Part shown: positions 4,063 to 54,958 of the stretch, piece by piece | Layout: every line of letters starts with the position of its first letter | How positions within the stretch are numbered: position 1 is the stretch's first letter | Virus record (IMG/VR): IMGVR_UViG_3300021399_000106 | Span: 64,001-128,000 of that record | DNA: 64,000 bases | DNA from: a virus | Lineage: Duplodnaviria > Caudoviricetes | Direction: 5' to 3' (one strand) | The notes under the pieces: generated by a model | What the model was told of the DNA's origin: nothing | Seen by the model: only the letters and a program-made list of their open reading frames with translations | Database searches by the model: none | Translations under genes and position numbers: made by a program

Positions 4063-4902
4063 GTGACAAATGAAAACAAAAGCAACTATCTAGGTTGAAA
4101 GGTATGAAATCCTACAGATGAAGAATTCGCAGAATTTTATACAGATAAACCTAAGGAACCGTTCCCTTTATTAGAGAACGAATATCTATTAATTTATGTA
4201 GATGATAAATTAGTAGATTCATATTGCAAGGAAGGAGATCATTTAAGGCGATTTAAACACAACACAATTAAAATAAAAGATAAAGAAACCATAGTTCCTA
4301 GAAATGATGAACAAAAGTGTGCATTTGATTTAATGAAGAATGATGATATAAAGGTTAAATTATTAACAGGAACTTGAGGTTCAGGTAAAACATTTATTTT
4401 AGTGTCTGCAGCATTAGAGGCATTGAAAGCTCATAAATTTGATAGAATTGTGTGAATTAGAAATAATGTTGATGTTAAAGATACCAAAGATTTAGGTGCA
4501 TTACCAGGTGAAGTAAATGATAAATTAAAACCTTTCTTAGGACCTTTCATTGACCATTGTGGTGAAAGAGAGGTTGAAAGAATGATTGAGGATGGTTTAT
4601 TAACTGTAGAACCTTTACAATCATTAAGAGGTAGAAATTTTGAAAATACACTAATTATGTGTTCTGAAGCTGAAAACCTAACAAAAGAACATATTCAATT
4701 AATTATTGCAAGAGCAGCTGAAGGAAGTGCAGTCTGACTAGATGCGGATTGTCGTCAACGCGATAAGGCAACATTTGAAAAATCAAAAGGTGTTGAAACG
4801 TTAATTGAAAGATTACAAGGTAATGAATTATTTGGTTATGTACATTTAATTAAAACAGAACGTTCTGCAACAGCTAGATTAGCAGATTTATTAAATGATT
4901 AG
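4063..4902 (+). CDS. phoH: PhoH-family ATPase (absent from the ORF track)
   Basis: GTG start; five TGA and no TGG. Walker A GT(W)GSGKT, LGALPG, LRGRNF, EAENLT, DADCRQRD, RSATARLA; TAG at 4900. Confidence 0.9.
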
Positions 4903-4911
4903 GAGATTAAA

Positions 4912-5541
4912 ATGAATAATGTAACAATAAATACAAAACGTATGAGAATTATGATAGGTATTTTAGGTATATTACTTCCTTGATTAGTAGCACTAATTAC
5001 CTTATCTTGGCCTGGTTCAATTTCTGAAACTTATTATTCATTGTTTGCAGTAGGAACATTTATGGTGGTTTTAGGAAGTGCGGGTATATTATTAGTTAAT
5101 TATAAAGGTTATGAGAAAATAGATGATATTACGGCAACAATAGCCGGTATATTTGGTATATTAATATGTTTATTTCCAATGACGTATTTACCAGAGCCTA
5201 GCACACTTACAGGGGTACTGCATTTACCTTCAAATATAAGTAATATATTCCATTGTATAAGTGCTTTTGGATTCTTTGGAACATTAGCATTTATGTCATA
5301 TTTCCTATTTACTAAATCAGATGGAGAAATGACAAAACAAAAGAAAATTAAAAATATTATTTATAGAATATGTGGAATTGGAATGATGGGTTCATTCTTA
5401 CTAATGTTATTAAATTTCTTTTCTTGGGCACCTTATAATTTAACTTGGATAGTAGAAGCCATTGCATTATTCTTCTTCGGTGTAAGTTGGATTGTAAAAT
5501 CAGATGCTATACCATTTTTACAGGATAAACGTATATCATAG
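4912..5541 (+). CDS. Multi-pass membrane protein
   Basis: ATG 4912 after AGGAG, TGA at 4981; several hydrophobic segments and a SISETYY motif. Confidence 0.75.
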
Positions 5542-5644
5542 AAAATATAATAAATATAATAAATTAACCGCTTAATCGCGGTTTTTTATTTTGTATAATT
5601 GTATATATAATATATAAAAACTGAAAAGGAGATTTATATAAAAT

Positions 5645-6430
5645 ATGAGTTTAGTAATTGCAATTAAAGATAAAGGAAGAGTTGTATTAGGTGCTGATAA
5701 ACAAGTATCTTATGGTAATAATAAAGACCACTCTTGTACAAAAATATGGGAAGTCGTTGGTTTACCTGGTGCTATAATGGGTGGTGTTGGTTCTGCTAGA
5801 GCTAGTCAAATTATTCAATATGCTGATATAATTGATAAAAATACTATTAACGATGATTTAGGTATTGAATTTGTAATTAGATATTTAGCACCTACTTTAG
5901 TGGCAACTTTAAATGCTAATGGTGTTCCTTGTGATGTACCAACAGATCCTGAAACCGGAATTAAAGGTGGCTGTATTATGATGCCTAATGCTTTCCTATT
6001 TGCTTATAATGACAGAGCTTGGATGATTTGGCATGATTTATCAGTAACTGAAATTGAAGACTATTTAGCTATTGGTAGTGGTTCAGAGGTGGCAAAAGGG
6101 GCATTATTTGCAACTCAAGGACAAAATCCATTTGAAAGAATTGTAACGGCAATTGATGCAGCATCTTCAGCAACTATTGGTGTTGATGACGGTATTGATT
6201 TATTAGTAACAGAAGAAAGAAATACTGATATGAAAAATGTTGCAAAGGCATTTGGAGTAGAAATTAAAAAGACAGAAGAAAAATTAGATAAATTAGAAGA
6301 AAAGAAAGTTGAAATGGAATCTGGCGAGGAATCAGAAACAACTGAAAACGATACTAATGTAGTTGAAGAAGTTAAGGAAAAGAAAACAAAGAAAACAAAG
6401 TCTAAAAAAGAAACTGTTAAGGAGGATTAA
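5645..6430 (+). CDS. Ntn-hydrolase, HslV/proteasome-beta-like protein with a charged C-terminal tail
   Basis: MSLVIAI..VLGADKQ..K and YLAIGSG pattern; Ser in place of the N-terminal Thr. Confidence 0.7.
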   Translation: MSLVIAIKDKGRVVLGADKQVSYGNNKDHSCTKIWEVVGLPGAIMGGVGSARASQIIQYADIIDKNTINDDLGIEFVIRYLAPTLVATLNANGVPCDVPTDPETGIKGGCIMMPNAFLFAYNDRAWMIWHDLSVTEIEDYLAIGSGSEVAKGALFATQGQNPFERIVTAIDAASSATIGVDDGIDLLVTEERNTDMKNVAKAFGVEIKKTEEKLDKLEEKKVEMESGEESETTENDTNVVEEVKEKKTKKTKSKKETVKED

Positions 6431-6432
6431 TT

Positions 6433-6624
6433 ATGACTAAAAAAGAATTCAATGCAGTAAGAGAATTAATTGTTAGAACTTGTAGCTCTGAAAATTTAAC
6501 AAGTTTATGTCACTATTATGGTGTAACAACTTCAGAATTTTATGAATATGTGGATGAATTAGCTTTAGAAGGTTTTAAAGATAAATATAATCAACATAAT
6601 CATCCAGAACATAATAAGGAGTAG
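6433..6624 (+). CDS. Hypothetical protein
   Basis: ORF with AGGAGG RBS inside an operon. Confidence 0.6.
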   Translation: MTKKEFNAVRELIVRTCSSENLTSLCHYYGVTTSEFYEYVDELALEGFKDKYNQHNHPEHNKE

Positions 6625-6629
6625 ATAAT

Positions 6630-7103
6630 ATGAGTAATAATTTAGGTTTTTGGCAAGAAGCCGATAAATATGGTTGTTTTAGTAATTTTTATCCTTGTAG
6701 TTTTACTTGGAATGGAAGAAAATTTAATTGCTCTGAACAAGCATTTATGTGGGCTAAGGCAACATATTTTAAAGATGATGATACCGCAATAAAAATTATG
6801 TCAGAGAGTGATCCTAAAAAGATTAAAAAATTAGGTAGAACTGTAAAAGATTTCAATGATGAAGAATGGTCAAAAGTTAGATATAATTTTATGTTACAAA
6901 TCAACCATGAAAAATATCGTCAAAATTTAGATTTAAGAAAAATTTTATTATCCACTGGGGATATTACTATTGTTGAAGATTCTCCTTTTGATTATATATG
7001 GGGAATTGGTAAAGATGGTAGTGGTCAAAACTTATTAGGTAAGGTTTTAATGGAAGTTAGACAATATTATCAAAATATTAGAAATGAAGCAACAGAGGAA
7101 TAA
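6630..7103 (+). CDS. NADAR (YbiA-like) family hydrolase
   Basis: FSNFY, SEQAFMWAKA, KKLGR, IVEDSPFDYIWGIG, GQNLLGKVLMEVR. Confidence 0.92.
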   Translation: MSNNLGFWQEADKYGCFSNFYPCSFTWNGRKFNCSEQAFMWAKATYFKDDDTAIKIMSESDPKKIKKLGRTVKDFNDEEWSKVRYNFMLQINHEKYRQNLDLRKILLSTGDITIVEDSPFDYIWGIGKDGSGQNLLGKVLMEVRQYYQNIRNEATEE

Positions 7104-7105
7104 AT

Positions 7106-7636
7106 ATGATTAAGTTTGAAAAAGTAAGCTATGATGAATTTAAAAAAGCTATGAATATATTTTTTCCTCAAAATGAAGACGTTATAGAAGAAATATATAA
7201 TAATATTAAATTACCAAAAAGAGGTTCTAAACGTTCTGCAGGATATGACATTTATTCACCTATTGATTTTGATTTAACTGTCCGTAATACCATTGTTCCT
7301 ACATTTTTTGATTCAAGTAAACCAATTATAATACCATTAGGTATAAAGGCTCAAATGCCTGATGATATGTTTTTAAACATTGTTCCTAGAAGTAGTGTTG
7401 GTTTTAAATCTGGAACATATTTAGCAAATACTATTGGTATTATTGATAGCGATTATTATAATAATGAAAAGAATGAAGGACATATAATGATAAAACTTGT
7501 TCCTGGATTTGAGGATTTATATGTTAATGCTGGAGACAGAATAGTTCAAGGTATTTTTACTAGATATTATATTACTGATGACGATGAAGCCCAAGATGAT
7601 AGAAAAGGTGGATTCGGAAGTACCGGAAGTAATTAA
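7106..7636 (+). CDS. dut: Trimeric dUTPase
   Basis: SAGYD, PRSS, GIIDSDYY, GDRIVQ, RKGGFGSTG motifs. Confidence 0.95.
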   Translation: MIKFEKVSYDEFKKAMNIFFPQNEDVIEEIYNNIKLPKRGSKRSAGYDIYSPIDFDLTVRNTIVPTFFDSSKPIIIPLGIKAQMPDDMFLNIVPRSSVGFKSGTYLANTIGIIDSDYYNNEKNEGHIMIKLVPGFEDLYVNAGDRIVQGIFTRYYITDDDEAQDDRKGGFGSTGSN

Positions 7637-7675
7637 TTATATTGTATAATATTTAAGAAAAGAGGTAAAAGTAAT

Positions 7676-8197
7676 ATGTATACTATTGAAACTAATATAG
7701 AATTACCTATTGCACACTGTTTATATAGAGGTGCATATAGTGGTTTATGCTGTGGTAATGTTTATAGAGATTTAAAAAATGATGGTGAAAAGGAAAGATA
7801 TGATTTAGGAGATTGTATATTTCCTATAATCCACGGTCATAATTATTTTGTAACTGTAGCATTAACAACAAATGAGCTAGATAAAAATGGAATGGTTGTA
7901 GATTTTAAGAAAATGAAGAAAATTATTCATGATTATTTTGACCAATATGACCATAGTATGATTCTAACACCTGATAATCCATTAACTCAAGCATATATTG
8001 AAAATTTTAAACAAAATGGTATTGATTTAAATAGAAGTAGATTATTTATTTGGAATGAAAATCCAACAGCCGAATATATGGCAAAATTATGGTATGATAT
8101 TATGTTAGAAAAATTTAAATCTGAAGGATTAAATGTAAATTCTTTGGCAATAACAGTTGAAGAAACATCACATAATAAAGTAACTTATACAGAATAG
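7676..8197 (+). CDS. queD: 6-carboxy-tetrahydropterin synthase
   Basis: AHCL...C, IHGHNY, GMVVDF, DH, NPTAE and ET motifs. Confidence 0.9.
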   Translation: MYTIETNIELPIAHCLYRGAYSGLCCGNVYRDLKNDGEKERYDLGDCIFPIIHGHNYFVTVALTTNELDKNGMVVDFKKMKKIIHDYFDQYDHSMILTPDNPLTQAYIENFKQNGIDLNRSRLFIWNENPTAEYMAKLWYDIMLEKFKSEGLNVNSLAITVEETSHNKVTYTE

Positions 8198-8210
8198 AAA
8201 GGAAAGTAAT

Positions 8211-8510
8211 ATGGAATTAACAAGTAAATTTTTAGGTAAAGAATTTGAAGGATTTAAAGTAGTTAAATATTTTGTTAAGAATGAGTATAAAAAGGTTTAT
8301 AAGAATCCTAAACAAAAAAATCATAGAGCATATAGTTATGAATTATATAATGAAACTACTAAGCAACATTTAACTATTAGCGGTAATCAATTAAGATTAT
8401 TAAATGAAGGTAAAAGAACAATTTCTCAAATGTTATCAGTTGATAATAGAGGAGGAAACAAAAATCCTCAAATTAATGCCTATAAAAAGTGGTTAAAATC
8501 ACAAAAGTAG
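8211..8510 (+). CDS. Hypothetical basic protein
   Basis: ORF with RBS, followed by a hairpin. Confidence 0.6.
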   Translation: MELTSKFLGKEFEGFKVVKYFVKNEYKKVYKNPKQKNHRAYSYELYNETTKQHLTISGNQLRLLNEGKRTISQMLSVDNRGGNKNPQINAYKKWLKSQK

Positions 8511-8605: not shown

Positions 8606-8986
8606 ATGTATAATAAAGATAATAAGTTATATGTTGAATGAAAAGATATTGAAAATTATGTAACTGAATTAGCAATTGAAGTTTGTAGAGATTTAAATAA
8701 ATGTCCTAATGGAGTTTATGGAGTTCCTAGAGGCGGTTTAATTTTAGCAACCTTAATAAGTTATAAATTAAATATACCACTTTTATTAGCACCTACAAAG
8801 GATTGTCTTATTGTTGATGATATAGCTGATAGCGGTAGAACATTACTACACTACACTGAAAACGATACACAATTTAATAAATATTATATTTCAACAATGT
8901 TTTATCATAAGAGAAGTATGGTAAAACCTGATTATTATGCATTTGAAAAAACTGATGAATGGATTGTTTATCCTTGAGAAGAGTAG
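8606..8986 (+). CDS. Gpt-like purine phosphoribosyltransferase (absent from the ORF track)
   Basis: LYVE(W), GVPRGG, LIVDDIADSGRT (PRPP loop) and C-terminal WIVYP(W)EE; two TGA at Trp positions typical of Gpt. Confidence 0.88.
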
Positions 8987-8994
8987 GTTATAAT

Positions 8995-9705
8995 ATGGAA
9001 GAATTAAAAAGAGAAGAAAATAAGCATATTGGTTATACTCCATTAAGATTAAAATGACAGAATGGAGAGTTAACTAGGTTAAATTGAGATATTGTTATTA
9101 GAGATGAAGAATATTTTGGTTATCATTTAGGTCCTGATTTTGATAATTATGACGAAAGTGATAAGGAAAAATACCTATATAGATATGATACCTGATTTAT
9201 ATGTAAAAGAGATTGTCCTGAAGATAAAATAATTGATAATTTAATTTCATGTAGTAGAGACGAAATGCAAGTTAGATGAGGATTTAGCATTAAAGAGGAT
9301 TCTTATTTAAAATATAAATGGGATGAATATGACCTTAGAACTAATGTAAAATATAATATAACAAGAAATGATGAATTATTTTATGAAGGTTGCTGTGGCT
9401 CTTTAGAAGGTGCATATGTAAATGCAATGAAAATTATATATCAATTAGAGGATTCAGCAGCAGAGATTACTACTATAGACTGGAATAAAAATATAATAGG
9501 AACAAAAGTTTGGTATTGTGATCAACCAGCTACTATTCAAAGCGTTTATCGAAGTGAAATGTATCTAGTTCCGGATAAGGAATTTATAAAAGAATTTAAA
9601 GAACCTGAATCTTGAAAAGGTGAGGATTGAATGTATTGAGGCGACTATAAAGATGGTTTATATGTAGAAATATGAGATCCTCGAATTACTTGATTTAGAA
9701 AATAA
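8995..9705 (+). CDS. Hypothetical Trp-rich protein
   Basis: Continuous frame from ATG 8995 to TAA 9703 with 9 TGA and 3 TGG. Confidence 0.7.
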
Positions 9706-9745: not shown

Positions 9746-10522
9746 ATGATAAGAGTAAATGAAAATGGTGAAAATCAAATAGGACTTGTAAATATCTTTC
9801 CTTCTATTAATGGAGAAGGTCACGCATCTGGTAAACCAACGGTATTTATTAGAGTGTTTGGTTGTAATTTACGTTGCGTTTGGTGTGACACAAAAGAAAG
9901 TTGGACTGAAGATAATTTATTAAAGGTATATCCTGAAAGATTAAATAATGTTTTAAAATGGAAAACTGCTAAAGAAATATTTAATGAAGTAGAATCATTA
10001 GAACAAAATTGGTATCATAAATCTATTTGTTTAACAGGTGGTGAACCTTTACATTTAGCCAATACTGATTTTATGTTAAATGAATTATTACCATTATTTG
10101 TAAATGCAAATTATGATGTAAGTATTGAAACTGATGGTGGAATTGATTATAAACCTTATAAGGAAAAATTTGGTGATTCTAAGGTAATTAATGGTAATGG
10201 AGATAGAGTAGGTGTAACTATTATTGCTGATTATAAGTTACCTTCTTCAGGAATGACTAAAATGATGATTAAGGATAATTTTAAAATATATTCTGAAATG
10301 GATTTAATAAAAATGGTTATATCTGATAATGAAGAAGATTGGAAGGAATTAGAAAATGTTGTTAATTCCGGAACTAAAGCAAGTATTTATTTAAGTCCTT
10401 GTTTTGGACAAGTTACAATGAACAGAATTCCTGAATTTGTAATGAAACATTCTGATAAACCTATCAGAGCACAAATTCAAGTACATAAAATATTTTGGGA
10501 GCCAACAAAAAAGGACGTGTAA
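9746..10522 (+). CDS. queE: 7-carboxy-7-deazaguanine synthase (radical SAM)
   Basis: IFPSINGEG, VFIRVFGCNLRCVWCDT, LTGGEP, SIETDG, QIQVHK. Confidence 0.93.
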   Translation: MIRVNENGENQIGLVNIFPSINGEGHASGKPTVFIRVFGCNLRCVWCDTKESWTEDNLLKVYPERLNNVLKWKTAKEIFNEVESLEQNWYHKSICLTGGEPLHLANTDFMLNELLPLFVNANYDVSIETDGGIDYKPYKEKFGDSKVINGNGDRVGVTIIADYKLPSSGMTKMMIKDNFKIYSEMDLIKMVISDNEEDWKELENVVNSGTKASIYLSPCFGQVTMNRIPEFVMKHSDKPIRAQIQVHKIFWEPTKKDV

Positions 10523-11009: not shown

Positions 11010-11391
11010 AGTATTTATTAGTGTACCAATGAAAAATAGAAAAAAGGAAGATATTGAATATTCAATTCGTAAGATGAAAAGAATTGCTAGATCATATTTA
11101 GCAGAAAATGATATTGAAGCAGATAATATTGACTTTATTAATACTATTGTTTCAGAAAATCCTCCTAAAGAGGTGAATGAAAAAATTTGGTATTTAGGAG
11201 CAGCAATTCAATTATTAGCTAAGGCAGATTATTTAGTAACTATAAATTATGAAGATAGTTATGGTTATTCTGGATGTGAAATTGAAAGACACGCCTTTTA
11301 TGCTTATAAAGGAGAAGATAACATAATACAAATACCATTAGCTTATATTTTATCAGACAATGAAAAATTAAATTACAACACGGAAAAGTAA
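11002..11391 (+). CDS. Nucleoside 2-deoxyribosyltransferase-like (DUF4406-type) protein
   Basis: KVFISVPM..., LLAKAD, SGCEIE pattern. Confidence 0.6.
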   Translation: MIKVFISVPMKNRKKEDIEYSIRKMKRIARSYLAENDIEADNIDFINTIVSENPPKEVNEKIWYLGAAIQLLAKADYLVTINYEDSYGYSGCEIERHAFYAYKGEDNIIQIPLAYILSDNEKLNYNTEK

Positions 11392-11416
11392 TTTAATAGT
11401 TAAGGAGCTATAGTTT

Positions 11417-11809
11417 ATGCCTTATGATAAAGATATTATAGCCAGATATGAATATCAAGCTTTAGGAAGAGTTATTGCAGTTGACTTTGATAGTACAATA
11501 ACACAACATAGGCCCTATCCTCAAAAAGCACCTTTAAATGAGAAAGCTAAAAAATATCTGGATAAACTAAATGAAAAAGGATTCAGAATTGTTTTATGGA
11601 CGTCTAGATTAGAAGATGATTTAGAAGAAGCTTATGATAGATGTATAAATGAATTTGGATTATCATATTTAATTAAAGATAATTCAGATCTTATTCACGG
11701 TGCAACAGGTAAACTTGTAGCATCATTCTATATTGATGATAACTCTTATGTAAATAAAAAAGTACCGTGGAGAAAGATATATAAATACTTATTAAAAAAA
11801 TACAAATAA
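11417..11809 (+). CDS. HAD-superfamily phosphatase
   Basis: IAVDFDST, LWTSR, K, YIDD motifs. Confidence 0.8.
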   Translation: MPYDKDIIARYEYQALGRVIAVDFDSTITQHRPYPQKAPLNEKAKKYLDKLNEKGFRIVLWTSRLEDDLEEAYDRCINEFGLSYLIKDNSDLIHGATGKLVASFYIDDNSYVNKKVPWRKIYKYLLKKYK

Positions 11810-11825
11810 TTGTATAATATATATA

Positions 11826-11873
11826 ACGCAGTTCGAACTCAAAATCCTGCGTAATAAATTAAAACTAAAGGAG
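11826..11873 (+). ncRNA. Putative preQ1-I riboswitch overlapping the queF RBS
   Basis: Stem ACGCAG/CTGCGT; loop begins TTCG and ends in C; A-rich tail ends AAAACTAA and runs into AAGGAG; begins just after the TTGTATAAT promoter motif at 11810; directly upstream of queF. Confidence 0.78.
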
Positions 11874-11879
11874 ATAAAA

Positions 11880-12797
11880 ATGGCAAAAAAATTGAGTGAA
11901 GAAAAATTAAATGTAACAGAAACATTGGCTGCTACGCATCTAGGTAAGAAATCAGCTGGTAGTGAAAAGTATGATAAAAGCTTACTTGTAGCTGTTCCTA
12001 GAATTGAAAACAGAACCGCTTATGGTATTGAAGAAAGTAATTTACCATTTGTAGGTTATGATGTTTGGGATGCTTATGAAGTATCATTTATGACTACTAA
12101 TAACGTTCCTTGTATGTATGTTTTAAAAATTAAATATCCTTGTAATAGTCCTTATATTGTAGAATCTAAGTCATTAAAATTATATTTAAATTCTTTCAAT
12201 ATGACACCTTTAAAGGATACTATTGAAGAAAGTACACAATACTTTTTAGATACTGTTAAAAAGGATTTAGAAGAGCTTTTAAAAACAACAGTTGAATTAC
12301 ACTTACATACAGAATATTCTAAATCAAAATGTAAAATGTTTAAAGGTTATACTAATTTAAAGAAATTAGTAAATATGAATGAATTACATTGCGAAAAGTT
12401 TAATGAAGCACCGGAACTATTAAGCTTTGATAGCTCTAATGCAAACAAGGAATTAAAAATTACTTTTGATTCAATGAGATCAAATTGTAGAGTAACACAT
12501 CAACCTGACTTCGCAGATGCATTTATTAGAATTAAATGCAAAGATGGTGTTGATTTAACTAATCTAACTAAATATTTAATTTCATTTAGAAAAGAGTGGC
12601 ATTTCCATGAAGAATGTGTTGAAATGATTTATAAGAGATTATTAGATAAATATAATCCAGAAATTCTTATGGTAGGTGCTTTATATACAAGACGTGGTGG
12701 AATTGATATTTGCCCTATGAGAGCATTAAATAGTGATTTATTAGATAAAGAATTAATTTCAATTAATAAATATACTAAGAAAACTATTAAACAATAA
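11880..12797 (+). CDS. queF: preQ0 reductase, bimodular YqcD-type QueF
   Basis: DVWDAYEVS, IVESKSLKLYLNS, RSNCRVTHQPD, FHEECVE, YTRRGGIDI. Confidence 0.93.
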   Translation: MAKKLSEEKLNVTETLAATHLGKKSAGSEKYDKSLLVAVPRIENRTAYGIEESNLPFVGYDVWDAYEVSFMTTNNVPCMYVLKIKYPCNSPYIVESKSLKLYLNSFNMTPLKDTIEESTQYFLDTVKKDLEELLKTTVELHLHTEYSKSKCKMFKGYTNLKKLVNMNELHCEKFNEAPELLSFDSSNANKELKITFDSMRSNCRVTHQPDFADAFIRIKCKDGVDLTNLTKYLISFRKEWHFHEECVEMIYKRLLDKYNPEILMVGALYTRRGGIDICPMRALNSDLLDKELISINKYTKKTIKQ

Positions 12798-14350: not shown

Positions 14351-14764
14351 ATGAAAGGATTGATGCATATGAAAAAAGAAGGAATCAATATTACTAAGTT
14401 AACAGAGAATATGGATGTTTTTGACTCTTACTTATTTGGTGATAATTTAGAGGAAAAACAATTTGCTGTAGACTTACTTACTAGAGGACATGACTTTATA
14501 TATCGTATTGTAAATGGTAAACATAGATTCTATCCTTCTAGATTTATTGGTTATGCTAATAATAATATGGAAACTCATACAGCTGATCCTGGTGATGGAA
14601 GAAGAACTAATCACAGATTAAATGCAGCTGTAGGTAATAGATCTACTAAAGATGAATTATTAAGTAGCATCTATAATGCATATGTTAAACAAGTAAAACC
14701 AACTAATAAAAAGAAATATACTAAAAAGAAATTTTGGCACTATGATTTTGGAGGTCTTAACTAA
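14351..14764 (+). CDS. Hypothetical protein resembling the N-terminal domain of some HNH restriction proteins
   Basis: RG..F...FYPSRFIGY.NN...H...DGRRTN pattern (recalled, not searched); TAATG-coupled to dpdA. Confidence 0.45.
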   Translation: MKGLMHMKKEGINITKLTENMDVFDSYLFGDNLEEKQFAVDLLTRGHDFIYRIVNGKHRFYPSRFIGYANNNMETHTADPGDGRRTNHRLNAAVGNRSTKDELLSSIYNAYVKQVKPTNKKKYTKKKFWHYDFGGLN

Positions 14765-15834
14765 TGTTACCTGAATTACCTATTGAACAAAGAAATATGG
14801 AAAATCATTTTAGAAATATGCCTCCTCATCCATACTATCTAATAGCTGCAGGACAAGGATTTACAAAAGTAACATTTCCTGATGGAACTGAATCAACAAG
14901 TGATGAGGTTAAGAAAGAATTAGGTTATTGTCAACTATTTGCGTGAAATCTTGAAAAAAGTGCTCTTATGAAATGGGTTGAATACCTTACAGAGCATCCT
15001 GATCATCCTTGTAAACTCGTAGTTGATAGTGGTGCATATTCAATGTGGTCTAGAGGAAAAGAATTTGATATGGATGAATATATTAATTTCTTAAACTCTA
15101 ATAATGTAATTGAAAGAGCATTCTGGGTTGCAGAAGCAGATAAAATTCCAGGAAGTTTTGGTGTAGATCCTACACCAGAGGAAGTAGCAGCGGCTCCTGA
15201 AGAATCTTGGAATAACTATCTATATATGATTAAAAGAGTTAAATATCCAAAAAAGATTGTTCCTATCTTCCACATGGGTGAAGACTTCGAATATTTAAGA
15301 AGAATGCTTACATATCAATTTGAAGATGGCGATTTTATTCCATATATTGGAATTTCTCCAAGAAATGACGTTCATGTTAATTTCAAAACTGTTTGGTATG
15401 ATCAAGTATGGAAGTTTATATTTGAAGAATGTCAAAAATTAGGAAGAGATATTCCTTTAACACATAACTTCGGTATGACAACAATTTCCTTAATGGAGCA
15501 ATATCCAAGTTGTAGTTCTGACTCAACATCTTGGGTAAGATCTGCTTCTTTTGGAAATATAATGATTGTTAATAACGGAAAGATTGAAATTGTTTGCGTT
15601 AGTGATAGACAATTAAACAGTCCAGACCATATTAAAAATAAATCTAGAGCTTTACAAGAAGTTGTAGAAAGAGAATGTCAAAGAATTGGCAGAGGTTTAA
15701 CTCTTAATGATTTAATTTATAATGACCCATCATCATCTTTAAGAAAGTGTTTTAACTTGTATAGTTTACATGAATGGGCAACAAATTATAAATATTGTGG
15801 TACCGATGAATTTAAAGAAGATTTGTGAACTTAA
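14764..15834 (+). CDS. dpdA: DpdA-like DNA-guanine transglycosylase (TGT fold)
   Basis: Joined across TGA 14944 and 15826. VVDSGAYS, VPIFH, HNFG, SSDSTSW; sits in the que cluster. Confidence 0.8.
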
Positions 15835-17034: not shown

Positions 17035-17787
17035 ATGCTAGCAGATTTATTAAGTCCTGCAAATTATATAATGGTAAATAGAGATGCTATCAGAATATTA
17101 GGATTAAATACAGCTGTATATTGCTCAGAGTTACTAACAATATATAAAAAGGTAGTAACTAAAAAGAAGTTTGTTAATGATGAAAAATACTTTGAAGTTG
17201 ACAGAGAATATATCAAGAAACAAACTTCTTTAGATATACAGGATCAGTTAAAATGTGATATTAATCTTGCAAAAGTTAATATAATAAAAATTGATAGTGT
17301 TAATCCTAATGTAATTTTCTTCGATATAGAAATATTTAGTTCCGTACTCGCATCTGAAGACATTAAACTATTAGATAATGTTGCAAAGAAAGTACAAGTT
17401 GAAAATCCAAAAGGAGTTAAACAAGCAGATAGAAACTATGTTATTCAAAGATTAAAGGATGGCATAGAGTGTAGAACTCCTGAAATATTATTTAAACTAC
17501 GCGAATGGATTGATTCTTTATTTGAAGCAGGTAAAGGATTATCTAAAGCTCAAGTAAAATTATTTAAAGATAAGTTAGATGATTATTGTAATGGTGATTT
17601 ACAAAAAGCTCTTGCTATAATTGAAATTGCAACTATTCACTCTTATATAGATTGTCAATGGGCAATTAACACTTATGAAAAAGATCATAATATTAAAAAC
17701 ACAATTACTTCATCACCTAACAGATATACATTTACAAGTACTAATGAGCAAAGAAAAACAACTAAAGTAAGCGATGAGGTGTTCTAA
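17035..17787 (+). CDS. Putative replication initiator / replisome organiser
   Basis: N-terminal YIMVNRDAIRILGLNTAVYCSEL resembles the winged-helix of phage replication proteins; replication gene context. Confidence 0.45.
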   Translation: MLADLLSPANYIMVNRDAIRILGLNTAVYCSELLTIYKKVVTKKKFVNDEKYFEVDREYIKKQTSLDIQDQLKCDINLAKVNIIKIDSVNPNVIFFDIEIFSSVLASEDIKLLDNVAKKVQVENPKGVKQADRNYVIQRLKDGIECRTPEILFKLREWIDSLFEAGKGLSKAQVKLFKDKLDDYCNGDLQKALAIIEIATIHSYIDCQWAINTYEKDHNIKNTITSSPNRYTFTSTNEQRKTTKVSDEVF

Positions 17788-18362
17788 TGAATGGATTAAC
17801 ATATAGTGTAATATATACACCCTCAACACATACAGATTATAATGCAAAATATGTTTGCTCAGATGGAAAAGTTCATATTAGATTTAGAGATTATAATAAA
17901 ACACAGATTATTGAAGGTTTTGAAGGAAAATTAACATATTTAATAACTTTCTTATTTAACAGAAATGGATGTTCAAACATATCTGAATTTATGACTCTAA
18001 ATGAAACATGAATACTAAATCAATATTTAGAAAAAGGAATTTCTGAATATACCTATAACTATTATAAATATAAAGGTTTAAAATTATTTGAAAAGTATAG
18101 TAAAAAAGATTCTTCTGGAGGATTTGGAGATTATAATACCTCATGTTTCCCTCAGGAAAATATTAAATATGATAATGCTACTACTATCAATAATATTGAT
18201 ATCTTTATAAAAGATTTAAAAATACAAGATTTAAACGAATTTCTTTTTGATGATGGATATAGCATTATTATTCACAAAAAGAAAAATGATAAAGATAATA
18301 AATTCATCAGAAAACAGAAAAAGAAATTAAAAACAGAATCTGACTTAATAGAATTATGATAA
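17787..18362 (+). CDS. Hypothetical protein
   Basis: Open through TGA 18009 and 18357 to TAA 18360; ends DLIELW. Confidence 0.65.
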
Positions 18363-18655: not shown

Positions 18656-20335
18656 GTGATATTTATAACTGAAAACACTCCTAAAAAGTTATCAGGTATT
18701 ACATCACTATTTCTAAATTTTCCTTATAATAAGGATATCATTGAAACTATAAAAAGATGCGATAAATATGTATATGATGGAGAAACTAAAACGTGAGAGA
18801 TTCCTGTCACATTCCTATCATACATATTAGATGAGCTAACTTATTATGACGATATTACCCTCAAACTACTTAAAGAAGATAGTAAAGAGGTCTACTACCC
18901 TAAGCTTATAGAGAGATACAAAACAAAGCCGTTTAAACATCAAATTGAAGGTATTGAATGAGGATTAAACTTATCTAAAGGAGGTCTACTTTTAGACGAT
19001 CCAGGATTAGGAAAATCTTTACAAATGATTTATTTAGCAGAAGAATTAAAAGAGCAAAAAGGATTAGAACATTGTTTAATAATTTGTGGTATAAATACTC
19101 TTAAAGGTAACTGAAAATCAGAAATTCAAAAACATTCAAATCTATCATGTAGAGTAATAGGAGAAAAGATTTCTAAAAAAGGTAAGATAAGCTCTGCAAG
19201 TATCGCAGAAAGAGCAAAAGAACTTAAAGAACCTTTAGATGCATTTTTCTACATACTAAATATAGAATCTCTTCGTTATAAAGAAATTGTAGAGGCAATA
19301 AAAAAATCAAAAAACAAAATTGATTTAATAGTTTTTGATGAATGTCATAAATGTGCAAATGCTCAATCTCAACAAAGTCAAGGATTACTTAAATTAAAAG
19401 AAGCAAGATTAAAAATTGGTCTTACAGGAACACTTCTAACTAATAGCCCTCTTAATGCTTATACACCATTAAAATGAATAGATGTAGAAAAATCTACACT
19501 TACTAATTTTAAAGGATTATATTGTGAGTTTGGCGGATTTGGCGGTCATCAAATAATAGGTTATAAAAATATTGATATTCTTAAAAATGAGATAGAAACA
19601 TGCTCTTTAAGAAGAACAAAAGATATATTAGAAGATCTTCCTCCTAAAACAGTAATTATAGAAAAATTAGATATGAATGATGCTCATAGAGAATTCTATG
19701 AAGCTGTTAAAAATGGTGTTAAAGAGGAAGTAAATAAAATTGATTTAAACCTAAGTAGCACTTTAGCATTAACTACAAGATTACTTCAAGCTACATCTTG
19801 TCCCTCAATATTAACTACATCTGATATCATGTCAACAAAGATAGAAAGAGCTTTAGAGTTAGTTGAAGAAATTTGCGGCCATAATCAAAAAGTAGTTATA
19901 ATGTCAAGATTTAAGGAACCTATATATCAATTAGAAAAATTATTAAAAGATTACCATCCTTTAAGAGGTGATGGAGATATATCTGAAGACCAGTTTGAAA
20001 AGAACAAGAAGTTATTCCAAGAAGATAATGAGTATATGGTTTGATTAGGAACACATTCAAAATCAGGAACAGGAATAACATTAAATAAAGCTTCTTATAT
20101 GATACTACTTGACTGCCCTTGAACTGCTGCAGTTACAAAACAAGTAGAGGATAGAATTCATAGAATAGGCTCTAAAAACAATGTTTTCATTTATCGACTA
20201 GTATGTAATGATACTATAGATGAAGTTGTTCAAAAAGCTATTAAGTTAAAAGAAGCCTTAGCAGATTTCGTTATCGATGATAAGGTTGATGACGCTACAC
20301 TTCAAATTTTAAAGAACTATATTTTGGAGTTGTAG
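18656..20335 (+). CDS. SNF2-family helicase/translocase with HARP-like N-terminus
   Basis: GTG start; six TGA and no TGG. DDPGLGKS, GN(W)KSEI, DECH, LTGT, GTGITL, DCP(W), QVEDRIHRIG. Confidence 0.92.
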
Positions 20336-23473: not shown

Positions 23474-23559
23474 AAAATATTAAAAAATATTAAAATTTGA
23501 GCGAATATCGCTCTTTTTTTATTGTATAAATAATATGAAGATTAAAAATTAGAGGTGAT

Positions 23560-26129: not shown

Positions 26130-26139
26130 GGAGGATAAT

Positions 26140-34122: not shown

Positions 34123-34147
34123 TTTAAAACAGAGAGGAGAATATAAT

Positions 34148-34330
34148 ATGGATAAAACAGAAAACACTAATATGAATGTTAATTATAGATCTCCTGAGAC
34201 CTTTTTAAATGAAAGAAATGGTTGAGATAAAAATTTTGAATTTATTGATTATAGTTATCTAACAATATTTGAAGGATTAGAAAAAATAAACAATAAATTC
34301 AGTGAAAGTATAGATTTAGAAGAGGAATAG
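34148..34330 (+). CDS. Small hypothetical protein
   Basis: AGGAG RBS, one TGA, TAG stop. Confidence 0.55.
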
Positions 34331-34347
34331 AAAGGAGACTGATATAA

Positions 34348-40300: not shown

Positions 40301-40389
40301 GAACAGGGGTTTTCAGTTATTATAGTAATCGTGTAACTGCAATTGAAGATCATGAAAGTGAGTTAAGAGAACTTGGATTAATTGATTAA
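34348..40389 (+). CDS. Giant BspA-type (LRR_5) leucine-rich-repeat protein, ~2013 aa
   Basis: All six track fragments are in one frame, separated only by TGA (13 by my count); dozens of LPxxxxIGxxAFxxCxxL repeats. Confidence 0.9.
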
Positions 40390-40433
40390 TAAAATAATTG
40401 TATAATATTAATATAAATTGAAAGGAAAATATT

Positions 40434-41432
40434 ATGAAATTACAAATTTTAATACCACATTATAATGAACCATTTGAAATAATGAAACCAATGCTAGATA
40501 GCTTAGCAGTTCAACAGAATATTGATTTTGATGAATTAGGTGTAATTATTACAAATGATGGTAATGAAAATGTTTTAGACGAAAAACTATTTGAGTCATA
40601 TCCATTTAAAATTGAATATTATATAAATGAACATAAAGGTGTTTCAGCAACAAGAAATGCTTGTTTAGATAAAGCCAAAGCAGATTATGTAATGTTTGCT
40701 GACTGTGATGATATGTTCTATTCAGTTACTGGATTATGGACAATCTTTAATGAAATTGAAAATGGTGGATTTGAAACATTCATTTCAGTATTTGTTGAAG
40801 AAGGAAGACATCCTGACAGTGGAGAAGTATATTATCTATTTAGAGGAGATCCAAATAATGGTGGAATTGATTCCACATTTGTTCATGGAAAGGTTCATAA
40901 TAGAAAATTCTTATTAAGAAATAAGATTAGATGGAATGATAGTTTAACAATTCATGAAGATTCATTCTTTAATTGTTTATGTCAAAGATTAGCAGATCCA
41001 ACAAAAGCTAAATTCTGTCCTATGCCATTCTATTTATGGAAATGGAATGATAATAGTGTTTGTAGACATGATCCAAAATATATTTTAAAAACATATAATA
41101 ATATGTTAGATAGTAATACAGCATTAGTATCAGAATTCCAAAAGCGTGGTAGATTACAAGATGCACAATTTTATTCAGTAAGTATGATATTTGATGCATA
41201 CTATACAATGAATAAAGATGAATGGATTAACCAGGAAAATAAAGAATATAGAGATAATACAGAAAAGAGATTTAAAAATTATTATTTACAATTTAAAGTA
41301 TTATTTGATACCTGTCCTGAACAAACAAAGAATATGATAATTCAAGGAATTAGAACTAGAATGTTTGGAGAAGGTTTAGGATTAGAAAAGATTACCTTCG
41401 ACCAATGGATTAAACATATCGAATCATTATAA
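40434..41432 (+). CDS. Glycosyltransferase family 2
   Basis: ILIPHYNE, NDG, GVSATRN, FADCDD, HED. Confidence 0.9.
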   Translation: MKLQILIPHYNEPFEIMKPMLDSLAVQQNIDFDELGVIITNDGNENVLDEKLFESYPFKIEYYINEHKGVSATRNACLDKAKADYVMFADCDDMFYSVTGLWTIFNEIENGGFETFISVFVEEGRHPDSGEVYYLFRGDPNNGGIDSTFVHGKVHNRKFLLRNKIRWNDSLTIHEDSFFNCLCQRLADPTKAKFCPMPFYLWKWNDNSVCRHDPKYILKTYNNMLDSNTALVSEFQKRGRLQDAQFYSVSMIFDAYYTMNKDEWINQENKEYRDNTEKRFKNYYLQFKVLFDTCPEQTKNMIIQGIRTRMFGEGLGLEKITFDQWIKHIESL

Positions 41433-47596: not shown

Positions 47597-48913
47597 TTAT
47601 ACCTTATTAATTATTTCAGATTTAACTTTTTCAATAAGAATTTCCTTATTATTTTCTATCTTGCCTTCAATAATATCATTTAGATATCCTTCTAAAATAT
47701 TTTTGATTATAGGTCCAGGTTCTAATCCTAATTCAATTAAATCATTACCATTAATTGCTAATTGTTTTAATGAATAACAACCATTACGAACTATATCTTC
47801 TAAATCATTACGTAGTTTAGTAGCTTTATATTCACTGATATTACCAATAACCCGAGACATTATTATAGAGGAAACCATAACATAATAACAATAATCTTTA
47901 CTGTCATTATGTTTTAATTCATGTAATGCTTTTGTAATTATATATCTATCAACATCTTCATGGCTTAATTGTAAATATTGATATTTACCACCAATAATTT
48001 CACTATTTTCAGTAACTGTTCTACAAATATCATTTATATAATCTTTATCTTCATTAGATAATATTAAATAGTTAAATAATAAATGTCTTGATTCAATTCT
48101 ATTAAATAGTAAACAATATGATAATATATAATCTCTATTAAATAGAGGATCACTATTAAATATTCTGGATATTAAATTCATACTGTAAAGATGCGTATCA
48201 TTTAAAGGTAATACTTGTTTAAGAATATTATAAGCTAATACATTATTTAATATTCTAGCAAATCCTTTTCCACAAACTAATTTATTTAATTCTGTAGTTT
48301 TACGTTCCTTTGCAATGGTAAATAAATTATTTTTTAATTCCTCTGCGGCTAATAGAGTATTATTTTCAACTTCAAAATCTAATACTGAAGCAAATCTAAG
48401 CATTCTTAAAATTCTTAAAGCGTCTTCATCAAATCTATAATATGGATTTCCAACAGTTTTAATAATTTTATTTTCTAAATCAGTTATACCGCCAAAATAA
48501 TCTATAATATATTTACCATCATATACTAAGGCATTAATAGTAAAATCTCTTCTAGATAAATCTTCTTGAAGATTAGTTGTAAATGTAACTTCATCTGGAT
48601 GTCTATGGTCAGTATATTCTCCATCTAAACGATATGTTGTAATTTCATAATTTTCCTTCTTATATCTAACAGTTACGGTTCCGTGCTTTTCACCATTATT
48701 ATTAATTAATGTATAATCTTTATTTTTAAATACCTCTTTAATTTGTTCCGGAGTGGCATTTGTAGTAATGTCATAGTCCTTAGGAGTTTTATTTAATAAT
48801 AAATCTCTTACACATCCACCTACAATATATGCTTCATATTTAGTATGTAATTTGTTTAATAAGTTTTTAACTGCCTCTGGAATATTAAAATCATATTTAT
48901 ATTTTCCTACCAT
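47597..48913 (-). CDS. cca: CCA-adding tRNA nucleotidyltransferase (class II)
   Basis: VGGCVRD, DYDITT, EITTYR, RRDFTINA, EDALRILR, ER. Confidence 0.93.
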   Translation of the reverse strand: MVGKYKYDFNIPEAVKNLLNKLHTKYEAYIVGGCVRDLLLNKTPKDYDITTNATPEQIKEVFKNKDYTLINNNGEKHGTVTVRYKKENYEITTYRLDGEYTDHRHPDEVTFTTNLQEDLSRRDFTINALVYDGKYIIDYFGGITDLENKIIKTVGNPYYRFDEDALRILRMLRFASVLDFEVENNTLLAAEELKNNLFTIAKERKTTELNKLVCGKGFARILNNVLAYNILKQVLPLNDTHLYSMNLISRIFNSDPLFNRDYILSYCLLFNRIESRHLLFNYLILSNEDKDYINDICRTVTENSEIIGGKYQYLQLSHEDVDRYIITKALHELKHNDSKDYCYYVMVSSIIMSRVIGNISEYKATKLRNDLEDIVRNGCYSLKQLAINGNDLIELGLEPGPIIKNILEGYLNDIIEGKIENNKEILIEKVKSEIINKV

Positions 48914-52792: not shown

Positions 52793-52804
52793 AATAATAT
52801 CTCC

Positions 52805-53179
52805 TTATCCAAAATAGTAATCTAACGATGCTTCTTTCTTTTCCGCATTATATTCATAACTATCTAATTCATCTATTGAATAAAATGTAATTGGAAAGAA
52901 ACCTAATCTATGATGTCTTGTAACTTCCTTATATCTTTTTAATTCTTCCTTACTCATTTCTTGCCAATTTTCAGGAAATTCAACATTATCAATTCTATTC
53001 TTAATATAATCTTTGATATCTAGCCAAGTACAAAATTCAGGATAGCCATTAGATTCATGCAATACATTATAAAATAATTTTCCATTTGCAAAATCTATCC
53101 AAGTTTTAGCATCGCAAACAACTAAAGAATGTGAACTTGAACTATTAGTTTCAAATGTTGATTTTCTAACTTTAATCAT
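52805..53179 (-). CDS. FETNSSS-motif protein 3
   Basis: MIKVRKSTFETNSSSSHSLVV...DYYFG. Confidence 0.85.
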   Translation of the reverse strand: MIKVRKSTFETNSSSSHSLVVCDAKTWIDFANGKLFYNVLHESNGYPEFCTWLDIKDYIKNRIDNVEFPENWQEMSKEELKRYKEVTRHHRLGFFPITFYSIDELDSYEYNAEKKEASLDYYFG

Positions 53180-53525
53180 AAAATACTACTTCCTTATCTA
53201 CATCAATTATTTTATATAAAGCTTTTAATTCAGGATTTATTTCATCACATAATACATAATTAAAACGATTTCTTTCATCTTCACCTTTAAATTCAATAAG
53301 ATACTTATTACTTTCAGTTGAAAAATCTGATAGCTTTGTTGTTTTAAATACTGAAGTTTTACAGATTAATGACTTACGTGAATCGCTATATAAAAATTGA
53401 TATATAGCCTTTATATCATCAATATTAATGGATTCTATATGAAAGTTTAAACAAGGATTAGGTCCACCATAGTCATTAGTATATTTTAAAGCATTTATAA
53501 ACACATTTTCATCATTCTTATTCAT
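53172..53525 (-). CDS. Hypothetical protein
   Basis: Translationally coupled ORF. Confidence 0.6.
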   Translation of the reverse strand: MNKNDENVFINALKYTNDYGGPNPCLNFHIESINIDDIKAIYQFLYSDSRKSLICKTSVFKTTKLSDFSTESNKYLIEFKGEDERNRFNYVLCDEINPELKALYKIIDVDKEVVFYD

Positions 53526-54163
53526 TATTCCTCAAAATCCTTTTCTGTAATATTATATTTTGAACATGTACAAGTACTGTCAATATATTCTTTTACTCCA
53601 GTATTTAATCCTGGCTTTAAGGTTGGGTTAAATGCGTCATAATAATTTGAATTGTCATTATCAATTACTATCATGCATCCTTTATTAAAAATTATATTAA
53701 TTAAATCTTCATCATCTAATAAATCTTGACTTTGATGGTCAATACTTCCAAATGGGTCACCATATTCATCAATATTTAACTCAAACTTAACCTCTTTAAC
53801 ATCTGGACATTTTTCTTTGATTTTTTCCAATAAATCTTCTAACTCTTCATTTACAACACCATCAGCAATCATTTGTTCAGCTTCACTATGAGTGGTATCA
53901 TTCTCTTCTCCTCAATTCAAATGAATACATAATCTAGTTGCAACATAATCTAACTTATCATTAGATGAAATCAGTAGGTCATCAGTACCAAAACCAGTTA
54001 AAGATTCAGGACCTGACCAACCATAATCTCTAAAATGGATAGTTAAAACTCCATTATCGGTTGCTAGTTCATACTCAATTCTATTTGGATTTTTCTGTGA
54101 ATAAACTAATGAGTGAGATGAACTAGAATTTGTTTCAAATACATTTTTTCTTATTTTTATCAT
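53525..54163 (-). CDS. FETNSSS-motif protein 2
   Basis: MIKIRKNVFETNSSSSHSLVY; joined across TGA 53912; YGW, KLDY, IDHQS, IDNDN. Confidence 0.85.
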
Positions 54164-54172
54164 AAAATCTCC

Positions 54173-54958
54173 TTAATGGTTATCATTATCAATAATTAAA
54201 ATTATGTTTCTATCAAATAAAAATCTTTCATAACCAATTTTTCTAATTTTTGGCATTTGATCATTTTCCTCACCTTCAAATGATTCGTGATCTATATAAC
54301 CAAATCCTTGAAATTTATCTTCACCGGCTTCTGTACTTACTTCGTTACCGTGTCTACCTTTAAATGTTATAGACCAAGTATGCCAATATGGATGTGAAAT
54401 ATCTTCTAATAAATTAGTTTCAGGTTTTAATTCTTCAAAGCAACTTGTTTCTGAATCATTTTTTACATCACAATCGTCTAATTCAGACCACCACTTATAT
54501 TTAAAACCTTTAAAGTTAGGATCATATTCTTTTAATATTGCCATAACTTTCTTAACTTCTTCATATTCTTCTAATAATTTACAAGCTTTATTCCATCTCT
54601 CATTTGCTTTTTCATCATCATAATTATTAAATTTATAATATTTAGACCAATCCTTATCCTCTTTAACTACCCATTCTTCATCAACTTTATCAGATAAATA
54701 TTCATTTGCAAAGTAAGTCATTAAATAATTTAATTTTTCTTCAAAACTTTTAATTACTTCTTTTCTTTGCCAACCATAACCTTCGAAATTAATAGTTAGA
54801 TAACCTTTATTTTCATCATTCCAACCATACCAAAATTCTGATTCGCCTTTTTTATAATAACATTTATTTCGCCAATTTTTAGCGTTTGGATGTTTATATA
54901 CTAAACTATGACTAGAACTTGAATTGGTTTCAAAAACATTATTCCTGATTTTTATCAT
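54173..54958 (-). CDS. FETNSSS-motif protein 1
   Basis: MIKIRNNVFETNSSSSHSLVY; YGW, KLNY, IDHES, IDNDNH; all 11 Trp are TGG. Confidence 0.85.
   Translation of the reverse strand: MIKIRNNVFETNSSSSHSLVYKHPNAKNWRNKCYYKKGESEFWYGWNDENKGYLTINFEGYGWQRKEVIKSFEEKLNYLMTYFANEYLSDKVDEEWVVKEDKDWSKYYKFNNYDDEKANERWNKACKLLEEYEEVKKVMAILKEYDPNFKGFKYKWWSELDDCDVKNDSETSCFEELKPETNLLEDISHPYWHTWSITFKGRHGNEVSTEAGEDKFQGFGYIDHESFEGEENDQMPKIRKIGYERFLFDRNIILIIDNDNH

Follow-up and report, generated by a model that had tools for sequence, protein, structure and literature searches.

Tryptophan is unevenly spelled as TGA among the genes of a large TGA-suppressing phage

We analyzed a window of 64,000 nucleotides, bases 64001-128000 of the 166,546-bp virus record IMGVR_UViG_3300021399_000106, which lies midway in a large phage genome of 166 kb or more. 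The genes of this phage fall into two classes, those that write tryptophan only as TGG and those that use TGA for it. With a probability of about three in four, we consider that two forces yield this pattern in a TGA-suppressing phage of a standard-code host. The phage would read TGA as tryptophan with its own tRNA-Trp(UCA) and a TrpRS-type synthetase. Genes that are needed before, or regardless of, a working suppressor would be held TGA-free by purifying selection, and these would include the earliest genes, the recoding kit itself, and the tRNA/RNA-repair, NAD and queuosine-pathway genes. Meanwhile, in genes made after the suppressor appears, AT-biased mutation would push TGG to TGA, near the neutral A:G ratio. 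Late-class proteins and several nucleases and recombination proteins would then give no full-length product until the kit works. Thus, both forces together would create a de facto translational dependency on top of the promoter classes.

Meaning and uneven use of TGA

Genes were called under code 4 on the whole record, independently of an earlier note on this DNA, with a codon-usage score blind to TGA and TGG, and gene starts were refined by ribosome-binding sites. The record (27.2% GC, CheckV completeness 93%, no end repeats found in the 166,546 bp) holds 236 called genes with 209 TGA and 352 TGG codons. In-frame TGA is present in 33% of the genes (158 of the 236 are TGA-free), and TGA is the stop of none of them. 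In the following, per-gene figures are written as TGA:TGG, positions are those of the window, and positions on the record are marked as genome positions.

Three IMG/VR contigs, recovered via the RNA ligase and taken whole, were used as relatives. G001 (100.8 kb) is recoded, with 130 TGA versus 264 TGG and its own tRNA(UCA), and G002 (47.8 kb) is sparsely recoded (26:165). G003 (36 kb, 35% GC) has the RNA ligase, the polymerase and further genes in common with this phage. It uses the standard code: codes 4 and 11 give it equal coding densities, it holds 157 TGG, its sole four in-frame TGA lie at the ends of open reading frames (ORFs), and 2 of its 42 genes have a TGA stop. Across the three relatives, TGA of this phage is matched by TGG at 58 aligned sites and by TGA at 72. 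Because all eight TGA sites that are aligned in the standard-code G003 are TGG there, these alignments show that TGA encodes tryptophan in this phage. In addition, Pfam domains span in-frame TGA codons. A TGA that forms the last codon of the gene at 17787-18362 aligns to TGG in G001.

The recoding kit was found with ARAGORN and Pfam. There are 32 tRNA genes and a transfer-messenger RNA (tmRNA) in the record by ARAGORN, among them tRNA-Trp(UCA) at genome 38184-38259 (also matched by the Rfam tRNA model) and tRNA-Trp(CCA) at genome 39772-39847. A tRNA-synt_1b gene of the TrpRS/TyrRS class (genome 38335-39150, E 3e-66) adjoins tRNA(UCA), and its own tryptophan codons are 0:2. Both components lie in TGA-free surroundings. 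A gene for release factor 1 (RF1) was not found in the whole record. The order of elements at genome 37777-39315 is a TTGTATAAT-type motif, a 103-codon ORF (2 TGA, 0 TGG), tRNA-Trp(UCA) and the TrpRS-type gene. As the ORF requires suppression and lies directly upstream of the suppressor, this arrangement could form a positive feedback loop. The tmRNA is full-length and lies outside the window, at genome 27577-27992 (Rfam RF00023, 70.8 bits). It is a speculation of ours that a phage tmRNA might rescue ribosomes which run past host TGA stops to mRNA ends when TGA is suppressed.

The earlier note had counted TGA and TGG gene by gene, called the usage bimodal and asked for a binomial overdispersion test. 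All of its per-gene counts were reproduced by our gene calls, and the unevenness exceeded every permutation. For the span covered by that note (4063-54958), chi2 was 137.0 on 54 degrees of freedom, with a permutation maximum of 88.4; for the window it was 155.5 on 67, with a maximum of 100.7 (20,000 permutations each); and for the genome it was 394.7 on 178, with a maximum of 232. Among the 53 genes with at least four tryptophan codons, 30 use a single codon (expected 4.7, permutation maximum 15). A beta-binomial fit takes on a U shape (a 0.24, b 0.47), and a two-component mixture with TGA fractions of 0.04 and 0.78 gains 96 log-likelihood units over one rate. Furthermore, one 61-kb stretch holds 27 TGA versus 184 TGG, and clustering of the classes is significant genome-wide (P 5e-5). 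These tests confirm that the two classes of TGA usage are real and strongly non-random.

The TGA-dominated genes include PhoH (4063-4902, 5:0), the SNF2 helicase (18656-20335, 6:0), an Asn-synthase-like gene (27208-28257, 4:0), Stealth (28259-29350, 7:2), a possible glycosyltransferase (29374-30183, 7:1), a BspA-type leucine-rich repeat protein (34348-40389, 13:3) and a Holliday-junction resolvase (60958-61419, minus strand, 4:0). Meanwhile, TGA is absent from NADAR (6630-7103, 0:5), QueE (9746-10522, 0:6), the RNA ligase (24858-26129, 0:9) and a gene of unknown function without family match, the most tryptophan-rich of the TGA-free genes (54173-54958, minus strand, 0:11). The GT2 glycosyltransferase (40434-41432) is 0:6 with the ATG start at 40434, which has a ribosome-binding site, whereas a TTG start at 40398 would add one TGA. 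Most gene names of the earlier note agreed with Pfam and PHROGs. Its RecU-like gene belongs to the Holliday-junction-resolvase family phrog_843, and its GT-A gene, the possible glycosyltransferase above, has a weak match only (E 8e-4).

Promoter-like motifs, relatives and host

We found three classes of promoter-like motifs in the record. The motifs were chosen by eye with the TGA counts visible; their positional enrichment and their replication in G001 are objective, and their promoter function is putative. Each gene was assigned to the last motif upstream on its own strand.

Class E is TTGATT-N15-19-TATAAT. Its 10 sites are all intergenic, co-oriented with genes and 25-33 nt before start codons, and they have a near-identical layout (a T-rich upstream stretch, TTGATTT, about 14 nt, TATAAT, then TGTAAA). 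They lie at genome 1705, 2561, 4248, 5519, 7513, 9155, 9604, 10704, 35795 and 39407, spanning 1.7-39.4 kb of the genome with none in the window, and all ten precede TGA-free genes. The site at genome 39407 stands, with a ACTAAATTA motif, before the leader ORF of the tRNA array. Class M is TTGTATWWT (TTGTATAAT-type), an extended -10-like element that often comes right after a terminator-like hairpin; 45 of its 78 copies are intergenic. Class L is ACTAAATTA, of which 22 of 29 copies are intergenic while intergenic DNA makes up 13.8% of the genome (binomial P 7e-14). This motif precedes the sheath, tube/hub, tape-measure-like, baseplate and fibre genes of this contractile-tailed phage, and because it precedes tail genes we treat it as a putative late promoter. 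The number of ACTAAATTA copies in the window is not over-represented (7 matches versus 4.3 expected); the signal lies in genome-wide position and orientation. In addition, sigma-70 regions r2 and r4_2 were not found in the whole record, nor was a late sigma factor or activator.

The TGA fraction follows the motif class, as the following counts support. The 18 genes of class E are 0:22, the 156 genes of class M are 94:271 and the 57 genes of class L are 115:56 (L versus M at gene level, P 7.5e-7). Class L sites beyond the tail module did not serve to define the motif, and they still give 58:39 (P 7e-4). In the window, class M is 51:129 and class L is 46:11, and the difference replicates in G001 (L 54:50 versus M 48:182, P 1.6e-4). 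Tail, baseplate and fibre genes have 57:17, whereas sheath plus tube have 0:9. The TGA-free genes of class M are, for example, the RNA ligases, the CCA-adding enzyme, RlaP, NADAR, QueC/E/F, NrdG and clamp-loader parts, together with TrpRS and NAD-salvage genes outside the window. The TGA-bearing genes of this class are the polymerase, SSB, DnaX, UvsX, the resolvase, SNF2, NrdD, DpdA and FolE. Meanwhile, the otherwise TGA-free early region holds TGA-bearing islands at genome 6260-7480 (6:2) and 11312-12751 (1:1 and 2:1), each preceded by a ACTAAATTA motif (genome 6220 and 11270).

Comparison with base composition and with G001 bears on how the TGA-free state is kept. As a neutral baseline, 83-88% of the codons for Lys, Glu, Gln, Leu (TTR) and Arg (AGR) end in A, whether the genes are TGA-free or not. 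However, TGA makes up 0 of 272 tryptophan codons in TGA-free genes versus 209 of 289 in the other genes. Silent sites are near saturation against G001, where 57-66% of the control codons that end in G here end in A; only 5 of 88 TGG codons of TGA-free genes turned to TGA there. Furthermore, whether a gene has any TGA is conserved between the two phages (Fisher odds ratio (OR) 27.8, P 4e-9; Spearman 0.69). These results support maintenance of the TGA-free state by purifying selection, not by base composition or gene origin. The earlier note had suggested looking at TGA positions in relatives: the any-TGA status of a gene proved conserved, while single sites turn over, as in UvsX and the polymerase (PolA) described below. 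One late gene can also differ greatly in its TGA load between relatives, since a 1333-residue tail-region protein (genome 148744-152745) is 14:1 here and its 43% identical ortholog in G001 is 4:14.

The earlier note had also considered that the TGA-free genes are recent acquisitions from code-11 donors, and that gene age or GC content at third codon positions (GC3) explains the TGA fraction. Genes imported in this way would have yet to gain TGA. Some TGA-free genes are indeed accessory, such as NADAR, GT2 and the RNA-repair genes. However, G001 has orthologs of 33 of 55 TGA-free and 43 of 60 TGA-bearing genes (P 0.24), with identities of 75% and 71%. The synonymous codon choice of TGA-free genes is nearer to the genome norm, not further off. 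Recent import is rejected because the TGA-free genes are shared with the relative about as frequently as the others and their codon choice is closer to the genome norm. In addition, 88% of the control codons end in A, which means that silent sites have come to equilibrium, and still no tryptophan codon of these genes is TGA. GC3 does not correlate with the TGA fraction (rho -0.14, P 0.22), and when tested in turn, neither overall GC nor a translational-selection proxy, ortholog sharing or codon-usage distance accounts for it. Recent import is thus largely refuted, and we give it hardly any weight. Meanwhile, 25 kb of the window had no match among GenBank phages in megablast.

The strong AGGAG-type, Firmicutes-style ribosome-binding sites of the phage and the resemblance of the DNA polymerase to those of Streptococcus, Bacillus and Clostridium phages point to a host in Bacillota. 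NrdD served as a probe of the host lineage. It is 70-73% identical to NrdD of uncultured gut or rumen Bacillota metagenome assemblies, and other hits are at most 64% identical. The matched genomes have 0.8-1.9 Mb and 28% GC and are labelled Bacilli, Mollicutes, Tenericutes, Acholeplasmataceae or Clostridium sp. CAG:594; these labels would fit the GTDB order RF39. A search of 401 genomes of the candidate host order for CRISPR spacers against 20 kb of phage DNA gave none that was convincing, mostly AT-rich noise. Thus, this is probably a large gut or rumen phage. Its tryptophan is written as TGA in the probable late genes and in part of the DNA-handling genes, but never in the presumed earliest genes or in the recoding kit.

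The pattern would be unrelated to gating if the host itself used code 4 and lacked release factor 2 (RF2), an outcome that the earlier note had named as fatal to its proposal. The very AT-rich phage genome and the Mollicutes or Tenericutes labels of the closest NrdD would suit such a host. However, prfB is above the curated cut-off in 17 of 18 genomes of the candidate lineage, which also have a second, RF1-like match, and their NrdD genes hold 0 TGA versus 148 TGG at 28% GC. Judged by these genes, the candidate hosts use the standard code with RF2, and the same is most likely for the actual host, whose link to this lineage is indirect. The phage side agrees: TGA occurs in only a third of the genes, the 61-kb stretch is poor in it, the related G003 is on the standard code including TGA stops, and the phage has its own suppressor tRNA and synthetase. 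By comparison, about 90% of the genes have in-frame TGA in code-25 phages, which are matched to recoded hosts (Borges et al., 10.1101/2021.08.26.457843). In a phage of a code-4 or code-25 host, one would expect TGA in almost every gene and no gene class that avoids it; this phage has single-codon usage in over half of its tryptophan-rich genes and no TGA at all in the TGA-free class. A code-4 host is therefore very improbable.

Order of the genes in the window

Up to position 41432 the features given here lie on the plus strand. The SSB-like gene (409-1224, 1:1, phrog_14578) has its TGA at codon 33, which is kept in G001, and a TTGTATAAT motif upstream at 344-352. DNA polymerase I (1319-4003, 2:8) has an ATG start with an AGGAG site and a TTGTATAAT motif at 1283-1291. 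Its TGA codons, 8 and 145, are both kept in G001; across relatives the gene is 4:5 in G001 and 0:11 in G002.

A ACTAAATTA late-type promoter-like motif (4005-4013) lies 50 nt upstream of the PhoH-like ATPase (PF02562, E 1.9e-34), whose orthologs are 3:2 in G001 and 2:4 in G002. It is one of three ACTAAATTA sites that precede the TGA-rich genes of the window. A TGA-free run of six genes follows (5645-8510, total 0:11), with TTGTATAAT motifs at 5591 and 7642 and NADAR (PF08719, E 5e-49) inside it. The gene at 8959-9705 is 9:3 and lies in a TTGTATAAT-class operon, 40 nt upstream of the TGA-free QueE-like radical SAM enzyme (PF04055, PF13353), which is also 0:6 in G001. The function of the gene at 8959-9705 is unknown, as it has no Pfam or PHROG match; its ortholog in G001 is 8:4, with 7 TGA positions in common. 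The DpdA/TGT-like transglycosylase (14764-15834, 2:8, phrog_887, E 2e-44) has TGA positions that are not kept in G001. The SNF2 helicase (PF00176) has no promoter motif of its own, and its ortholog in G001 is 5:1. Next to it is the NrdD anaerobic ribonucleotide reductase (20424-22640, 2:4, PF13597, E 6e-181).

Eight genes at 22946-26684 form a TGA-free block (total 0:26) of an NrdG-like activase, small ORFs and the RNA ligase, which is 0:8 to 0:9 in the three relatives at 61-81% identity. The second ACTAAATTA motif (26721-26729) heads a TGA-rich block (26773-30183, total 20:3), in which a small ORF (2:0) comes first and the Asn-synthase-like gene, Stealth and the possible glycosyltransferase follow. 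The part with the small ORF and the Asn-synthase-like gene (26741-28245) has 68-80% nucleotide identity to chromosomes of the candidate host order over 0.4-1.5 kb, which suggests a fairly recent gene exchange with the candidate host lineage. The third ACTAAATTA motif (30233-30241) comes before a further TGA-rich block (30269-40389, total 20:4), which consists of two unknowns, a fibre-like gene (3:0), a Kelch gene (1:1) and, at its end, BspA. GT2 (PF00535) has its own TTGTATAAT motif at 40398-40406.

The following genes are on the minus strand. The CCA-adding tRNA nucleotidyltransferase (47597-48913, PF01743, E 7e-44) has no tryptophan codons, and the RlaP-type RNA-repair nucleotidyltransferase (55883-56950, PF10127) is 0:1. 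The UvsX/RecA-like recombinase lies at 59071-60354 (2:0, phrog_97). The resolvase and three downstream genes (60958-62505; 4:0, then 3:1, 1:0 and 1:0) are within a TTGTATAAT-class operon. In G001 the resolvase ortholog is 3:1, and in G002, where recoding is sparse, it is 5:0. In addition, SbcCD-like nucleases lie just past the window edge.

Outside the window, genome 25398-26450 was tried as a capsid gene and rejected. Its Gp23 match is weak (20 bits, below cut-off), there are six homologs only, and the AlphaFold model is poor, with a predicted local distance difference test score (pLDDT) of 43. The homolog has small early-like ORFs as neighbours, including a Lar-type restriction-alleviation gene.

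Gating, tolerance and yield

The earlier note read the pattern as a temporal gate, in which TGA-free genes can be translated by the host at once and replication and late genes need readthrough enabled by the phage. The link to motif class, the conserved TGA-free state and prfB in the candidate host lineage speak for this reading. However, genes of the window without TGA belong to the same promoter class as those that have one or two, and they often lie in one operon with them. We regard the reading of the earlier note as partly supported and as right in outline.

Several observations weigh against our two-force explanation as well. The order of gene expression is deduced from sequence motifs that we defined ourselves. 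No head, packaging or lysis genes turned up: the terminase C-terminal domain, amidase_2, amidase_3 and LysM had no match anywhere in the record, which also gave no proof of a walled host, and the classic late set is incomplete. The sheath (0:5) and tube (0:4) genes are of class L and yet TGA-free, here and in G001 (0:6 and 0:4), and further TGA-free genes of class L are at genome 22969-25074 (0:7) and 34684-35781 (0:6). Class M is mixed: SNF2, the gene at 8959-9705, the resolvase cluster and SbcCD are in operons with TGA-free neighbours and lack a motif of their own. Within the window, clustering of the classes is not significant (P 0.14; 20 class switches among 49 genes). At the level of sites, UvsX is 0:2 in G001 at 93% protein identity, and TGA conservation in genes with one or two TGA is 0.64, versus 0.66 for other TGA codons. 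TGA makes up 72% of the tryptophan codons in permissive genes, under the neutral level of about 86%, and reversion from TGA to TGG (0.35) exceeds A-to-G change in control codons (0.12). Finally, the host link comes from the similarity of one metabolic gene and from nucleotide matches, not from CRISPR spacers. Because of the shared operons, the TGA-free sheath and tube, and the turnover of lone TGA codons, the view that TGA is tolerated once the suppressor is present fits the data as well as the view that TGA is selected as a gate.

Since sheath and tube are late and yet TGA-free, protein yield also matters. The avoidance of TGA in abundant tail proteins, the TGA fraction below the neutral level in permissive genes and the placement of TGA near 5' ends suggest that readthrough is costly. 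One could go further and suppose that TGA avoidance only mirrors the need for high or accurate protein yield, with timing irrelevant. The sheath and tube genes of both phages and the reduced TGA fraction of permissive genes would be expected on this account. Against it, all 18 genes behind early-type promoters are TGA-free, and the majority of TGA-free genes are small early ORFs and enzymes. Furthermore, the median share of C-ending codons among two-fold Y codons is 0.10 in TGA-free genes versus 0.14 in TGA-bearing genes (P 0.005); because of this lower share, the TGA-free genes do not appear translationally optimised. We thus regard yield as the sole cause as improbable, although less so than recent import or a code-4 host.

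The position of TGA within genes is not random. Within TGA-bearing genes, the counts are 36:5 for the first tenth of the gene and 173:75 elsewhere (OR 3.1, P 0.015), whereas A/G-ending control codons show no 5' bias (OR 1.06). Of the 38 mixed genes, 30 start their tryptophan codons with a TGA (expected 21.6, P 0.002), and 27 of 35 do so when the first 15 codons are ignored (expected 19.8). The same was found in G001 (29 of 39, expected 19.2) and in G002 (7 of 8). The remark of the earlier note that TGA often comes early in the gene thus holds. This bias fits a 5' lock, and it equally fits a cost of failed readthrough that grows along the gene.

It is possible, though clearly less probable than the two forces above, that TGA codons are actively selected as timers, so that one or a few of them close to the gene start would lock replication, recombination and nuclease proteins that are transcribed from host-type promoters, independent of promoter class. 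The 5' bias relative to control codons, its recurrence in both recoded relatives, the presence of TGA-rich genes within M-type operons and the resolvase, more recoded than any other gene even in G002 with its sparse recoding, are in favour of timers. On the other hand, the 5' bias is also expected if late failure of readthrough costs more, conservation of the TGA in genes that hold one or two is no better than in TGA-rich genes, UvsX switches from 2:0 to 0:2 between close relatives, and PolA has none in G002. As a tentative extension, 5'-proximal TGA locks might act on single DNA-handling genes (the resolvase, SNF2, SbcCD, PhoH and the polymerase) that are co-transcribed from host-type promoters with TGA-free neighbours. 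Such a layer may arise first when a lineage starts recoding, as the resolvase is already fully TGA in the least recoded relative.

The idea of a temporal gate is not new; it is the same as the model of Borges et al. (bioRxiv 10.1101/2021.08.26.457843; later Nat Microbiol 2022), who tested TGA versus TGG per gene family and proposed it for TGA-recoded gut phages of the Jade and Agate clades with standard-code Firmicutes hosts. In that study, suppressor tRNAs and a code-change module containing TrpRS are in standard code, the new code is used in 26-71% of genes, structural and lysis genes are recoded while recoding of replication genes varies, TGA is lost as a stop, and close standard-code relatives exist. 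The present phage is similar in that it carries a TGA suppressor tRNA and a TrpRS, the latter in standard code as in Jade. It also resembles these clades in its partial use of TGA, the loss of TGA as a stop, its close standard-code relatives, its variable replication genes and, as far as tail, baseplate and fibre genes other than sheath and tube are concerned, its recoded structural modules. Unlike in Jade and Agate, no RF1, lysis, head or packaging genes were found here. In addition, a tail tube family is preferentially recoded in crAss-like phages according to Borges et al., whereas sheath and tube are TGA-free here. Borges et al. do not mention the position of recoded codons within genes, and their study has neither the 5' placement of TGA nor a link to three promoter-motif classes.

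Block-wise dual coding has been described in crAss-like phages (Yutin et al. 2021, PMC7886860; Mgcod preprint, 10.1101/2022.06.29.495998). As there, part of the genome has a reassigned stop and part is in standard code. However, the classes in this phage are only partly block-like, and in mid-genome TGA-free and TGA-rich genes alternate within operons. It also differs in being contractile-tailed and in having Firmicutes-style ribosome-binding sites.

Large virulent phages of the T4 type have early promoters of sigma-70 type, middle promoters and late promoters, and the late promoter is a single short AT-rich element. The three upstream motifs of this phage are similar, the fullest host-type motif being before small early ORFs and a short AT-rich one before virion genes. 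They differ in that no late sigma factor or activator was found here and the motifs are putative; meanwhile, the codon-dependent layer of translation is absent from T4.

The published model is not overturned by this case, which mainly helps to define what experiments on it should look at. The phage provides a clean and quantified example in which selection upholds the split between TGA-free and TGA-using genes and in which this split tracks promoter-like motifs. The avoidance of TGA in the most abundant tail proteins and the lean of TGA to gene starts constrain the mechanism. Small AT-rich gut Bacillota that keep RF2 become a candidate host group. Furthermore, the series of relatives (one standard-code, one sparsely and two heavily recoded) may serve the study of how a code change spreads, and G003 is a useful outgroup for dating it. 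If the 5' TGA locks are real, they would time expression post-transcriptionally and thereby add a second layer to the early/late split that is already published.

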